Below, piece after piece: positions 37,017 through 41,707 of a stretch of DNA of 64,000 bases; positions within the stretch are counted from its first letter, which is position 1; the number at the start of each line of letters is the position of its first letter. The translations under genes and the position numbers were made by a program. The notes below the pieces were generated by a model that did no database searches, was not told the origin of the DNA, and worked only from the letters and a program-made list of their open reading frames with translations. The stretch comes from Candidatus Obscuribacterales bacterium. GTDB taxonomy: Bacteria; Cyanobacteriota; Vampirovibrionia; Obscuribacterales; Obscuribacteraceae. Location of the stretch: the NCBI GenBank assembly GCA_965228855.1, contig CBDDIJ010000003.1:768001-832000 (forward strand), written 5' to 3'.

Positions 37017-37838
37017 ATGGAAATAACCGAGCCTAAGAGAATTAGTGACGAAGTGCGCGATGCTGCTTTAAGGTACATCACGCCAGGTGGCATTCGAAAA
37101 GTTGTGCGTCGTCCGAAAACTGATGTTGAATCGGTTCATCAGTTGCTGCCCTTTAAAAGTGGTGCTCTTTCAACTCGCGTATGGGGAAAGTCCGAAGATA
37201 AGACCGTTTTGCTCGTTCACGGATGGGCGGCGAACCAAACGGACATGTTTCTATATGTTCCCCGCTTGTTGGACGCAGGATTTAAAGTGGTGGCAATGGA
37301 CTTGCCGGCGCACGGTGAGTCAAGTTTTGATGTTGCCGGATTGAATCACCTGGGCGATGCTGTGTTGACCGTCGGAAACGCTCATGGTCAGCTTGAGGGC
37401 GTAATTGCACATTCAGTAGGATGTGCTGCTACTCAACTTGCTATCGCGTCTGGATTGAGAGTCGGTCGCGTAGTTATGCTGGCTTCACCAAATGACTATG
37501 AGGCGAAGACGTACGGATTTGCAAAGCACGTGGGATTTTCGAAGGAACAGATCTCCGAGTTCATCGCTGCGTTGAGAGAGTTCGATGTTCGCGTCGAGAT
37601 TCGTAGTGTGGACTTCGTACCGAAGTTTGACACGCCCGCGTTGATCGTTCATTCTGAAGATGATGCTGTAATACCAATATCTGTCGGCGAGCAGCTTGCT
37701 GCCTACTGGAAGAACAGCATTTTTCTAAGAGTTAACGGATTGAATCACAGAGGGGTTTTGAGAGATAAATTCGTGATTGAAAGCGCAATCAAGTTTCTCG
37801 CTGACGAGGACTCTAGCGAGAGCGATCCCCATGAATAG
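37017..37838 (+). CDS. Alpha/beta fold hydrolase
   Basis: LLVHGW, DLPAHGES, AHSVG, HSEDD, GLNH. Confidence 0.88.
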   Translation: MEITEPKRISDEVRDAALRYITPGGIRKVVRRPKTDVESVHQLLPFKSGALSTRVWGKSEDKTVLLVHGWAANQTDMFLYVPRLLDAGFKVVAMDLPAHGESSFDVAGLNHLGDAVLTVGNAHGQLEGVIAHSVGCAATQLAIASGLRVGRVVMLASPNDYEAKTYGFAKHVGFSKEQISEFIAALREFDVRVEIRSVDFVPKFDTPALIVHSEDDAVIPISVGEQLAAYWKNSIFLRVNGLNHRGVLRDKFVIESAIKFLADEDSSESDPHE

Positions 37839-38172
37839 ACGATCTCCATGTCCGATTGCATGCACGCTTGATCTCATAGGTGACAAGTGGACTTTGTTGG
37901 TGCTCAGGGATATTTTGTTTTTTCAGAAATCTAAGTTTGACGAATTCCTTGACTCTCCTGAAAAAATATCCACGAACATACTCACGGATAGGCTTCACAA
38001 GCTTGAAGCCGCAGGACTGATCTCTAAAGCCCCTTACAGCAATCATCGCTTGCGTATGGCATATTCAGCAACCGCGAAGGGAGAAAGTCTGGCCCCAATT
38101 TTGAAGCAGCTCGTCGAATGGGGAATGCAAAATCTTGCGGAAACTCGGACACAACCTTTGCCTCCGAAGTGA
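37831..38172 (+). CDS. HxlR-family winged-helix regulator
   Basis: RRSPCPIACTLDLIGDKWTLLVLRD, ISTNILTDRL, YSATAKG; overlaps the upstream stop. Confidence 0.9.
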   Translation: MNRRSPCPIACTLDLIGDKWTLLVLRDILFFQKSKFDEFLDSPEKISTNILTDRLHKLEAAGLISKAPYSNHRLRMAYSATAKGESLAPILKQLVEWGMQNLAETRTQPLPPK

Positions 38173-38292: not shown

Positions 38293-38508
38293 TTAGTGGC
38301 GAATTATTTTGGTGGCATTCGCTTCTTCATTGTCGTAGCCCACAAAAACGTATTTTACACTTTCTTGGTGGCATGCGCATTTCGTACAGCTAATGCGTTT
38401 ATATACAGGTTTATCTTCCAGATTGGTCGCCACCATATAAAGTGGCAGATGAGATAGCGCGTTGCTGATTTGTCCGTCGAGCGGTCCACCATGCAAAGTT
38501 ACTGACAT
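38293..38508 (-). CDS. Small hypothetical protein with GGPLDG and CxxCxCH motifs
   Basis: AGGAG RBS; LHGGPLDGQ; CTKCACH; 33 nt downstream of rpsD. Confidence 0.7.
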   Translation of the reverse strand: MSVTLHGGPLDGQISNALSHLPLYMVATNLEDKPVYKRISCTKCACHQESVKYVFVGYDNEEANATKIIRH

Positions 38509-38541
38509 ACTGCTTCTCCTGCGGGTTTGAGGTTAGAACGA

Positions 38542-39150
38542 TTATCGCGAATAGAATTCAACAAGGAATTGTTCCCTGAAGCTCTGATCGATTTGGTCGC
38601 GCTCTGGGATTGCGTCCACTGTGATTGTATTTTCTTTGACGTCGACGGTCAGCCATTGGCCGCTGATGGCACCACTGATTGCGGCACGGTCTTTGGTGAG
38701 CTCAAATACGAATTTTTTGCTGCGCTCACGGAAAGAGATTTTGTCGCCAACTCGTAACCGGGCTGAGGCAATGGCGAGGCGTTTACCGTTGACTAAGATA
38801 TGTCCGTGAGAAACCAATTGTCGCGCTTGATCCCGGCTTGCGAAAAGTCCGGAGCGATAAACAATGTTGTCCAGACGCATCTCTAATAACTGCAATAGAA
38901 CTGTACCAGTTGCCGCTTTAGCGCGAGTAGCTTCATCATAGATTTTTCGAAGCTGACGTTCGGTGCATCCGTAGCTCCATTTAATCTTTTGTTTTTCCAA
39001 CAAGTGCTCAGCATAATTGGAACGTTTTTTGCGTGTGTTTCCGTGCTGGCCCGGCGGGTATGGATTGTGGAGCTGGTCGAACTTCTGATTACCATATAAG
39101 TTCATTCCGACTGCGCGGCAACGTTTTGCTTTTGAACCTGTGTATCTCAT
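38542..39150 (-). CDS. rpsD: 30S ribosomal protein S4 (uS4), Cys-poor type, probable paralogue
   Basis: [55 protein letters not shown]. Confidence 0.95.
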
Positions 39151-39172
39151 AGGATCTCCAAATATCTAAGCG

Positions 39173-39712
39173 CTAAACCAAAGCGCCGCGTACTGCCAGG
39201 CGAACCTTTTCGGCCCACGATGCAATTCTTGCCTCGGTCAGATCCGGTTGGTTTACTTCGTCGACAACCAGACCGCAGAAGTAACCATCAATAACTGCTT
39301 CCGAGTGATCGTATTCAAAACCTTCGGTGGAAACGTCGGCCGCAACTATCTCACCGCCGCGCTCTATCACTTTGTCATAGACGATCTTCATTGCGCTCAC
39401 AAAGTTGTAAGAGTATCCGTACTGATCGCCGAGTGCGAACAGTGCGACCTTTTTGCCTGTTAAATCGATGGAGTCGAATTTGGGAAGATAATCGGCAAAG
39501 TCGTCAGTCAACTCGCCGTCGCCCCAGGTCGACCCTCCAAAGATTAGGAAATCGCAGGCTTGAATGTCTTCGGGCTTCACACCATAAATATTTTTGACAT
39601 CCGAAATCAGGTCGGGTAGCGCTGCTTGGATGCTTGCTGCTACGCCCTCGGTAGTACCGGTTTGCGTTCCATAAAAAAGCTTGCCCACGAATGGATACCT
39701 CGTTCGTTTCAA
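39173..39712 (-). CDS. Long-chain flavodoxin (FldA/IsiB-like)
   Basis: FYGTQTGTTE, GGSTWGDGE, GKKVALFALGDQYGY, GLVVDEVNQPDLTEARIASW; TTG start 39712 after GGAGG (GTG 39688 is an alternative). Confidence 0.92.
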   Translation of the reverse strand: MKRTRYPFVGKLFYGTQTGTTEGVAASIQAALPDLISDVKNIYGVKPEDIQACDFLIFGGSTWGDGELTDDFADYLPKFDSIDLTGKKVALFALGDQYGYSYNFVSAMKIVYDKVIERGGEIVAADVSTEGFEYDHSEAVIDGYFCGLVVDEVNQPDLTEARIASWAEKVRLAVRGALV

Positions 39713-39726
39713 ATTGACCTCCAATA

Positions 39727-39748
39727 TTATGCAAATCATTCGCAATAA
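39727..39748. promoter_or_regulatory. Fur-family-like operator upstream of the flavodoxin
   Basis: TTA-TGCAAAT-C-ATTCGCA-ATAA; 7-1-7 core 39730-39744 with 1 mismatch. Confidence 0.6.
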
Positions 39749-40021
39749 GATCAACTAGTAGTTGAATAACATTCGCTACAATCCTTTACGAAGTAGCGAC
39801 TGCTGAACTCTGTGGGTGATTGCAATCGCCAAGAGGTGAATCTCGGTTGCAGTAACTATCAGTCTATTTAACGAGAACCATTTTCAAATAGTTCGGAAAG
39901 GGTCATTGGCGCCAATTTTGTCTTCGCATCTCACTCAGGCGCGAAATCGAAAAAATCTGAAATTAAATCGAGTTGTCGTTGGATACATATATAGGTAGCG
40001 TTGATGCGATTCCGGTTCTTG

Positions 40022-41707
40022 CTAGCAGGAGGAGCAGCCGCCAGCGCAGTCTCCGGCAGCGCCGCAACAGTCGGCGCTCGCGCAACAATCCGCTCCCCCG
40101 CTACCGCAGCATTCTCCCGCGCCTGCGCAAGCGTCTGCACCTGCACAACAGCCGCCGCCGCCAGCGCAGCACTCTGCTCCCGCATTGCAATGCGCGCACG
40201 TTTCGCAGCACGCGTCCGTCGGCAAGCAGCAGTCCCAAAAGACTTCGCAACCAGAGTCACAGCAACAAGGCGCCCAGCAAGGTGCAGGACGGGCTGTATG
40301 GTCGCGAGAGCGTCGATATCTGTCGTGATTATTTACACCCTTTTGTGTCGGCGATTCGTCTGGGGAGGAGCCATTTTTCGAGGAATTGGTTGAGATTACG
40401 GTTTTGGATGCTGAAATTTCTTTGGCACCACCATCGGTGCTGCTCTCCATCGCGTATGCGTAGGCGAACCCTTTCTTGCTTGCTCCGATCATCGAAGTGG
40501 TCGCTGCATTGATTAACGAACCAAATGCAGACCCCCAGAAGATGAGATTGAAAGGAAGATCGAAGCATTCCCGGTAGGACCTTATCGACCTGGTTTGTAC
40601 AGGACTAAGAAGTGCAGCCGACAGAACAAATATGTAAACGAAAGCGCGAAAAGAAACGTAGAAGAATCGCACCGCAGGTGGTGCGCAACTGGTCTCTATC
40701 TGATCCGAGAGCTGCTCAGCGCGTGAGCGTGCCATGACCCATCGAGACTGAGATTCGTTTCTTGTGTGACCGCAGGACGCGGCAATTGAGTTCGTATTTG
40801 AAACCTTTGGTTTGACCACCTTCAAATCGAAACCGGTTTTTCTCTGTACATTGGAGATTAGTCGGTTTTCGTACTCTTGCTGTAGTTTCCTATCAAGTTT
40901 CAGAAGGCTGAGGTCTTCAAGCAAAGCGCAGACAGTTTTGATTGTGAGAGTTTCTACCTCATCGATGACTCTGCCTGGTGCTGATGCAGAATTGAAATCA
41001 AAACTGCTGGCGATTGCGTTAAATGACTTTGTACGGAAGTCTCGTTGAATGTCTTCGAGGGCATCAATCAAGTAGATCAATGAGCCAAAATTGAATCCGA
41101 GCCTTCGCATTGCGTCTGTTTCTTCATCGGTACCGCCCATGATGGCGGCACTGTGTTCGAACACTAGCGATGTAATCGTCGCTGTCGGCTCTGCAAAATG
41201 ACGAAGTCGTTCAACCGGCGTCAAATTTGTGACCGCCGCGCGTTCTCTTGCCGCTTGCTGATTGAACCAAAGTGAGATCGATTCCAGTGGAAACCCAAGT
41301 GCGGTGAGTTCATCCGTTGATTGCAGGAAAACCGAAGAGAAATAGTATTGAGCACCATGAAACAGCGGAGAGCCAGAGTCTTCGACGTGGTCATCGAGCT
41401 TCAATTCCAAAAGAAGCATCGACACAGACGATGCAATTTTCAGCTCGCGCGGAACACTCGAGACGTCCGGAAGCGTCAAGCAGTTTAGTGATTGAAATTC
41501 TGGTGACCACCTGGAAAGTTCAGTTTCGCTGCTGGAGATTGCCAAAAGTAATTCCGCTAGAAACACGACATCATTGTTCAAAACCATGCGCGCCGGATGA
41601 CCGTATAGGGAACCGATTGCTTTGCAGGTTCCGCAGTAGAGCAGACGTCGCCGATACAACTGCTCCTCATCTTTATGGCAGGTGGTAACATTCATCAAGC
41701 CAAACAT
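40022..41707 (-). CDS. DUF5685-like protein with Cys-rich C-terminal tail
   Basis: MFG..YCGTCK..G...R..LNND N-terminus; KLDDHVED, YLIDALEDIQRD, FNAI; last 85 aa contain 25 Cys. Confidence 0.8.
   Translation of the reverse strand: MFGLMNVTTCHKDEEQLYRRRLLYCGTCKAIGSLYGHPARMVLNNDVVFLAELLLAISSSETELSRWSPEFQSLNCLTLPDVSSVPRELKIASSVSMLLLELKLDDHVEDSGSPLFHGAQYYFSSVFLQSTDELTALGFPLESISLWFNQQAARERAAVTNLTPVERLRHFAEPTATITSLVFEHSAAIMGGTDEETDAMRRLGFNFGSLIYLIDALEDIQRDFRTKSFNAIASSFDFNSASAPGRVIDEVETLTIKTVCALLEDLSLLKLDRKLQQEYENRLISNVQRKTGFDLKVVKPKVSNTNSIAASCGHTRNESQSRWVMARSRAEQLSDQIETSCAPPAVRFFYVSFRAFVYIFVLSAALLSPVQTRSIRSYRECFDLPFNLIFWGSAFGSLINAATTSMIGASKKGFAYAYAMESSTDGGAKEISASKTVISTNSSKNGSSPDESPTQKGVNNHDRYRRSRDHTARPAPCWAPCCCDSGCEVFWDCCLPTDACCETCAHCNAGAECCAGGGGCCAGADACAGAGECCGSGGADCCASADCCGAAGDCAGGCSSC

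Follow-up and report, generated by a model that had tools for sequence, protein, structure and literature searches.

A flavodoxin operon with a second, Cys-minus ribosomal protein S4 behind an iron-class box in an Obscuribacterales genome, and covariation of spare-S4 control with the type of main S4 in its relatives

Metal-free copies of Cys-liganded ribosomal proteins (C− paralogues) are a textbook zinc-sparing device, and the replacement of Fe-S ferredoxin by flavodoxin is established for cyanobacterial isiB. Zur-regulated C− paralogues have been described for L31, L33, L36, S14, S18 and L28 (PMC11672702). For S4, Chen, Roberts and Luthey-Schulten reported in 2009 gene pairs in which the alpha operon holds the C+ copy, while a C− copy without the indel lies elsewhere; the sections of their article that deal with S4 treat its site as zinc, report no Zur boxes and leave the regulation open, and neither “iron” nor “flavodoxin” appears in the text (PMC3087516). 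The S4 site of Thermus was first modelled with zinc (PMC3087516), while Thermus uS4 is described as [4Fe-4S]-binding in two other articles (PMC10450194, PMC11791143), one of which names Thermus, where it treats the subject, as the sole bacterium shown to have ribosomal Fe/S (PMC11791143). Which metal four-Cys S4 binds (zinc or [4Fe-4S]) and how C− S4 copies are controlled have stood as questions since the work of Chen et al. A Fur-regulated flavodoxin operon, isiAEBCD, that includes a small Cys protein is described for Synechocystis (PMC8634477).

The locus studied here lies in a 64,000-nt stretch of DNA, which was analysed as a whole and is called the window below, of an Obscuribacterales genome (G000). 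Obscuribacterales are a non-photosynthetic sister group of cyanobacteria. Three genes follow each other on the minus strand of the window with intergenic gaps of 22 and 33 nt, each preceded by an RBS-like GAGG or GGAG, and behind a 7-1-7 box, an arrangement that the initial annotation had described correctly: a long-chain flavodoxin of the IsiB/FldA type (39173-39688; 171 aa, GTG start after GAGG), a ribosomal protein S4 of a Cys-minus clade, rpsD2 (38542-39150; 202 aa), and a 71-aa small ORF of an unnamed family (38293-38508; GGPxDG ... YxFxGY). The flavodoxin passed the cut-off of TIGR01752 (flav_long; 170.2 bits, cut-off 146.75) and was the sole match to the flavodoxin query within G000. 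Both the S4 N-terminal and the S4 RNA-binding domain (PF00163 and PF01479) are present at full length in rpsD2, which passed NF003717 (226 bits, cut-off 116) and TIGR01017 (215, cut-off 177); the small ORF matched no Pfam or NCBIfam family. Between G000 and its congener G007, 37/37 differences in S4, 23/23 in flavodoxin and 6/7 in the small ORF were synonymous, a pattern that indicates purifying selection on all three ORFs.

As had also been noted, rpsM, rpsK and rpoA are absent beside rpsD2. A zinc-uptake or COG0523 neighbourhood was not seen there either; the neighbour is flavodoxin, and the COG0523 cluster lies on another contig. Directly upstream of the operon is a minus-strand gene (40022-41707) for a DUF5685 protein with a long Cys/Gly/Ala-rich C-terminal tail, and an alpha/beta hydrolase and an HxlR-type regulator (37017-38172, plus strand) are convergent with the operon 3′ end; in G007, an additional membrane-protein ORF separates the hydrolase/HxlR pair from the small ORF. 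A terminator scan of the locus gave results at chance level. Public RNA runs, present as assembled contigs (one set probably of DNA, another with three short pieces), gave no expression signal in either direction.

A second, four-Cys rpsD, looked for in the alpha operon of the same genome, is present there (G000:C3:2607836-2608462, within rpsM-rpsK-rpsD-rpoA at G000:C3:2606758-2609671). Its site, CxxC-x13-C-x4-C, has the spacing of T. thermophilus S4, which is also its best PDB match, with the four cysteines aligned. The two S4 proteins of G000 are 38% identical, and at the metal-site positions rpsD2 has A8, C11, Y19 and F24. Just 1/4 site cysteines is thus kept, which bears out the earlier statement that the four-Cys N-terminal metal site is lost. 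The window's rpsD2 is a C− ribosomal paralogue with a C+ copy in the usual operon, as in the S4 pairs of Chen et al., and it resembles their C−(IV) type, as far as that type is characterized in the article, in that the indel is absent and PGxHG is kept (PMC3087516); it differs in retaining one site cysteine, and its clade groups with a compact CxxC-x7-C-x4-C form that is absent from the types described in the sections cited. Canonical S4 of G000 shares four cysteines and their spacing with Thermus uS4, the one S4 reported with Fe-S in the cited parts of these articles (PMC10450194, PMC11791143), and by this analogy likely holds a [4Fe-4S] cluster.

In order to assign the box to a class, upstream DNA was collected in the family for feoB (the 30 loci with the highest scores), for flavodoxin (30 of 50 loci) and for cobW-domain genes (25 of 30 loci, without the five that scored lowest). 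By a symmetric half-site score, spacings of 1 vs 2 nucleotides were found at 12 vs 1 of 30 feoB loci, 29 vs 0 of 30 flavodoxin loci and 6 vs 13 of 25 cobW loci, with counts of 0.05-0.25 in shuffles. Since 7-1-7 sites occur at 6/25 cobW loci, spacing only (7-1-7 vs 7-2-7) was dropped as a Fur/Zur test, and half-site and flank models were used in its place. The models were built without the window's genus, though trained on loci later counted; tight feoB and flavodoxin models had at first not picked up the window box, and all sites were then used, at larger pseudocounts, to build them anew. Three classes resulted, named iron or zinc by the genes downstream (feoB and flavodoxin vs COG0523), a sequence-based naming: an iron class, TTRTTGAgAAT-n-ATTCTCAAYAA; Zn1, aaATGAwAAy-n-rTTwTCATtt, whose model comprises 9 sites and overlaps the iron model; and Zn2, TGATAAT-nn-ATTATCA. 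Over 5278 upstream regions of G000, the 99th percentiles were 10.3 for the iron model, 10.1 for Zn2 and 11.5 for a feoB-only model.

A putative σ70 promoter, TTGATC and CATAAT separated by 17 nt (39726-39754, minus strand; 9/12 in a consensus scan), precedes the flavodoxin gene. The scan by itself is at chance level (3 promoter-like sites vs 2.5 in shuffles), and both hexamers are conserved in the congeners G002, G006 and G007. The 7-1-7 Fur-family box TGCAAAT-C-ATTCGCA (39730-39744) lies over the spacer and the −10 element. It scored 14.6 with the pooled feoB and flavodoxin iron model, above the 99th percentile of 10.3 and a value reached at 14 of 8,217,925 G000 positions, 9.4 with Zn1 (790 positions as high) and, for the window promoter, 6.1 with Zn2. 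On the feoB-only model it scored just 7.3, with 1022 genome positions as high, so its class rests on the flavodoxin promoters and on the flanks. The 23-mer is identical in G007 and has 1-2 changes in G002 and G006. The box called Fur-like in the initial annotation thus fits the feoB/flavodoxin class, weakly so on the feoB-only model, and not the COG0523 classes. Two more sites, absent from that annotation, lie upstream of it: a weak iron-class site in the middle, which lies close to the −35 element on its upstream side (39759-39781, core 39763-39777; iron 11.7, Zn1 −0.7), and a distal 7-1-7 site about 140 nt upstream, nearer to Zn1 than to the iron class (39868-39890, core 39872-39886). We consider it probable that the window operon is under iron control, to which zinc control may be added.

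When G000 was scanned with these models, the feoB promoter ranked first with the pooled iron model (26.6), a PepSY-TM operon third, and a biosynthetic cluster was retrieved too; Zn1 matches lay at a tonB-receptor pair, merC and a His-rich protein, and zinc-model matches included COG0523 and Zur-like genes, Zn2 picking out the COG0523 cluster. ZnuA and PF00593 receptors were not found in this genome. Seven Fur-family genes are present, none over an NCBIfam cut-off: the best matches of G000:C5:6194-6679 are iron-type Fur proteins, those of G000:C3:1638754 are Zur structures, and that of G000:C5:823181 is PerR.

The region G000:C2:681726-700015 (L047) encodes a PLP decarboxylase, a cysteine synthase-rhodanese, a class-V aminotransferase, a flavin oxidoreductase, a GNAT protein, a beta-hydroxylase, an MFS protein and a Rieske oxygenase along with two Fur-family genes, has three iron-class and several Zn1 boxes, and is possibly a metallophore pathway; within it, behind Zn1 boxes, is a 107-aa His/Cys-rich metallothionein-like ORF (L047:6135-6458, minus strand). 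TonB and an 898-aa receptor-like protein with no PF00593 match, each with a strong Zn1 box, are encoded at G000:C3:293498-297137, and a GCS2-family ligase, an MFS-like transporter and a PepSY-TM-like gene lie at G000:C5:1274845-1278629 with an iron-class box of 21.1. The Zn2 (7-2-7) cluster at G000:C5:511270-516853 comprises a Fur-family gene and two COG0523 genes together with genes for a Cys-free S18 and for another L33, which still has four cysteines with altered spacing, as in relatives; S4 is absent from it.

A profile of the non-alpha S4 family matched in 92/104 genomes of the family, 44 of which hold the non-alpha type, and 14 of the 104 had two S4 matches. In a class-wide sample of 261 genomes, all 12 with two S4 matches were in the window's family. 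A metagenome scan retrieved rpsD2 at 2 of the 80 loci retained out of 557 confirmed, with flavodoxin beside neither. A first tree of 41 non-alpha S4 rows contained 27 compact CxxC-x7-C-x4-C and 14 Cys-minus forms (one row without its N-terminus). Cys-minus forms make up one clade, with support of 100/99. Among rpsD2-type genomes, rpoA directly follows rpsK in 13/14 rpsK loci read, rpsD being kept in G063, from which it follows that rpsD2-type genes have evidently often become the only S4. Members of the Cys-minus clade are the sole S4 match in G061, G022 and G017, whose alpha operons are without rpsD, and 5/6 genomes of genus g16 have no S4 match besides the Cys-minus gene (the alpha operon being without rpsD in G061 and G022). 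The idea that compact four-Cys S4 is always a spare was rejected, as most genomes of g21 and g54 have this form and no other S4 match. Several genera of Obscuribacterales have lost the alpha-operon rpsD and carry a compact or Cys-minus gene as its replacement; S4 is evidently not orthologous across the family. In G101 (L232:4252-4842), the sole S4 has a partly eroded compact site (CxxV and one later cysteine), and the alpha operon is without rpsD.

Sole-copy genes also carry iron boxes: in g16 the box lies at about −190 and scored 21.1 in the four genomes scored, and in g21 iron boxes are found 1.2-1.3 kb ahead of a compact S4 that has no partner in the alpha operon. An iron box is therefore no proof of starvation-only expression, and a gene whose expression is needed at all times can retain one. 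Within the window's own genus, only 2/7 genomes (G000 and G007) carry the spare S4; in the congeners G002 and G006, a flavodoxin-small ORF unit without S4 stands behind the same box, so this unit predates the insertion of S4. The linkage of flavodoxin and rpsD is found again in two other genera (G019 and G097), there with compact four-Cys S4.

The box ahead of a spare S4 covaried with the type of the main S4. Where the spare accompanies a canonical S4, 6/6 scorable genomes have an iron-class box (14.6-28.0) and none a Zn2 box. In G000 and G007, a Cys-minus spare lies in the flavodoxin operon (14.6); in G019 and G097, a compact spare lies in a flavodoxin operon (28.0 and 16.4); G124 has a Cys-minus spare and the small ORF (23.1); and G063 has a Cys-minus spare (19.4, and 17.4 on the feoB-only model). 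Four of the six also pass the feoB-only model (12.9-24.1, against the 99th percentile of 11.5). Conversely, six genomes (G027, G076, G077, G079, G080 and G104) combine a compact and a Cys-minus S4 and have no alpha-operon rpsD; with the compact form as main S4, the Cys-minus copy lies in a COG0523 cluster in 6/6, with Zn2 scores of 19.1-24.4 and iron scores of at most 3.9. Left out of this two-copy comparison were G085, whose second S4 lies in a second, divergent alpha operon on an apparently foreign contig, and G029, where the upstream region is cut off and the canonical copy partial. Counted by genus, the split is 5/0 vs 0/2 (Fisher p 0.048, kin not being independent). The zinc-linked Cys-minus copies are not one clade (AU p 1e-6), which points to recruitment more than once.

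The simplest single account of this flip would be that the canonical S4 site binds Fe-S and the compact site zinc. It would also explain why flavodoxin operons can hold a compact S4, in which zinc would take the place of iron. As a tentative generalization, S4 with CxxC-x13-C-x4-C may hold [4Fe-4S] beyond Thermus, compact zinc S4 and metal-free S4 may have evolved as Fur-controlled substitutes, the metal-free spare coming under zinc control where compact S4 is the main one, and the regulator of the spare might then report the metal of the main S4.

For the window itself, we propose an iron-starvation transcript, repressed by Fur, whose Cys-minus S4 would replace the alpha-operon S4, the probable carrier of a [4Fe-4S] cluster, in new 30S subunits, a reading for and against which the chances seem to us about even. 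Flavodoxin, rpsD2 and the small ORF would form one transcript. When iron is ample, Fe-loaded Fur (best candidate, G000:C5:6194-6679) would sit over the −10 element; on loss of iron, flavodoxin would substitute for Fe-S ferredoxin, and the metal-free S4 would enter newly built 30S subunits in place of four-Cys S4, so that assembly would not call for a cluster in every 30S. S4 being among the primary assembly proteins, the swap would affect ribosomes as they are built, not those already in existence. The initial annotation had suggested such an iron-starvation swap of S4. The second, four-Cys rpsD, the linkage to flavodoxin and the feoB-class box agree with it; against it stand the zinc-linked members of the same clade in six relatives, the zinc-like upstream site and the iron boxes of sole copies, and the swap itself is read from sequence.

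Zinc sparing or dual control is a rival reading that we consider unlikely: four-Cys S4 would bind zinc, both Fur and, by way of the distal site, Zur would regulate the operon, and rpsD2 would be an ordinary C− paralogue behind a promoter responsive to either metal. The distal site does score higher with Zn1 than with the iron model (16.3 vs 10.7) and is found at the same place in G002, G006 and G007 (Zn1 22.9, 12.9 and 11.5), and Zn1-like distal sites occur at 10/30 flavodoxin promoters and 0/30 feoB promoters; G124 also has a Zn1 site of 13.7, the Cys-minus clade is represented in the Zn2-controlled COG0523 clusters of the six genomes above, and control by Zur is the classical case for C− paralogues in the passages cited (PMC11672702). 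However, an iron-class site covers the window −10 element, no Zn1 site of at least 13 accompanies the iron boxes of G019, G097 and G063, and the Zn1 model that singles out the distal site is the nine-site one that overlaps the iron model. Moreover, the zinc cluster of G000 has copies of S18 and L33 and none of S4, and Chen et al., where they treat the regulation of C− S4 paralogues, found no Zur sites at them (PMC3087516).

We are slightly more doubtful that the S4 is a passenger or back-up, that is, a mobile gene in a modular flavodoxin operon whose control is incidental, in a family where a spare has repeatedly replaced the alpha-operon gene. The spare in just 2/7 genomes of the genus, the alpha operons without rpsD, the boxes kept at sole-copy genes and the exchange of several small modules among flavodoxin operons would all suit it. 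Against it, a metal-starvation box lies ahead of 12/12 scorable spare S4 copies in contexts as different as the flavodoxin operon, S4 with the small ORF, S4 alone and COG0523 clusters, the zinc-linked copies were recruited more than once by the tree test above, and purifying selection on the operon genes is strong. Quite improbable is a role in oxidant tolerance or outside the ribosome, in which oxidative stress would deprive Fur of its iron and open the operon, and the Cys-minus S4 would shield 30S from cluster damage or act as an RNA-binding regulator. Oxidative stress has established links to both flavodoxin and Fur derepression, S4 is stated in the S4 article to bind mRNA besides rRNA (PMC3087516), and flavodoxin operons hold compact four-Cys S4 as well; yet no iron- or zinc-class box of note was found upstream of the PerR-like gene or rubrerythrin, rpsD2 is full length and over the ribosomal S4 cut-offs, and its close relatives act as sole S4.

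The profile of the small ORF, the last gene of the proposed transcript, matched in 47/104 family genomes, its genes sit after flavodoxin, S4 or COG0523 clusters, and it is present at 17/30 flavodoxin loci; it had 24 database matches, and those with a name come from bins labelled Melainabacteria or cyanobacteria. Iron boxes precede 26 of the 37 members scored and Zn2 boxes 6, the remaining 5 having no box. The protein is likely an accessory one of metal-starvation operons. It had been listed as a small CxxC protein, but CxxC occurs in only 22/38 members, and with 16/38 lacking it a CxxC metal protein is an unsupported candidate. Comparison with Pfam, PHROGs and the ESM Atlas gave weak leads, namely unnamed phage-rich clusters and a DUF5988-like fold with a TM of about 0.6. 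Two other unnamed ORF families with no Pfam match (L064:1111-1491, about 120 aa, and L116:680-1024, about 115 aa) and double-HTH Fur-like genes recur in flavodoxin/S4 operons behind iron boxes.

Compared with the described systems, the window operon shares with isiAEBCD, as outlined in the cited account, the long-chain flavodoxin, several one-base-centre Fur boxes and a small Cys-bearing ORF; unlike isiAEBCD, it is without isiA and includes a ribosomal protein (PMC8634477). With the Zur-regulated C− paralogues, as surveyed there, it shares a metal-free copy of a Cys-liganded ribosomal protein and a Fur-family box, and the S18 copy in the zinc cluster of G000 is of their kind; unlike them, rpsD2 has flavodoxin as its partner and a main box of the feoB class (PMC11672702). 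C+/C− S4 pairs, Zur-controlled C− paralogues and Fur-controlled flavodoxin operons are therefore known, and what is new is the switch in the regulation of the spare according to the type of the main S4. A search of the main text of largely open-access literature yielded no precedent for an iron- or Fur-controlled S4 paralogue, for the compact site or for the flip. In the C. acetobutylicum fur/iron transcriptome of Vasileva et al. from 2012, one rpsD copy is reportedly iron-induced, which, if right, supports iron control and lowers the novelty.

Given the repeated loss of rpsD from the alpha operon, S4 is not a safe marker for trees of Obscuribacterales. Canonical, compact and Cys-minus S4 are three naturally occurring forms that allow a direct test of the metal. 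If the proposed swap is true, an iron-controlled exchange of S4 would tie ribosome assembly to iron supply and Fe-S ribosomes would extend well beyond Thermus, and, should the wider account of the flip hold, ribosomes would be remodelled for iron as well as for zinc.
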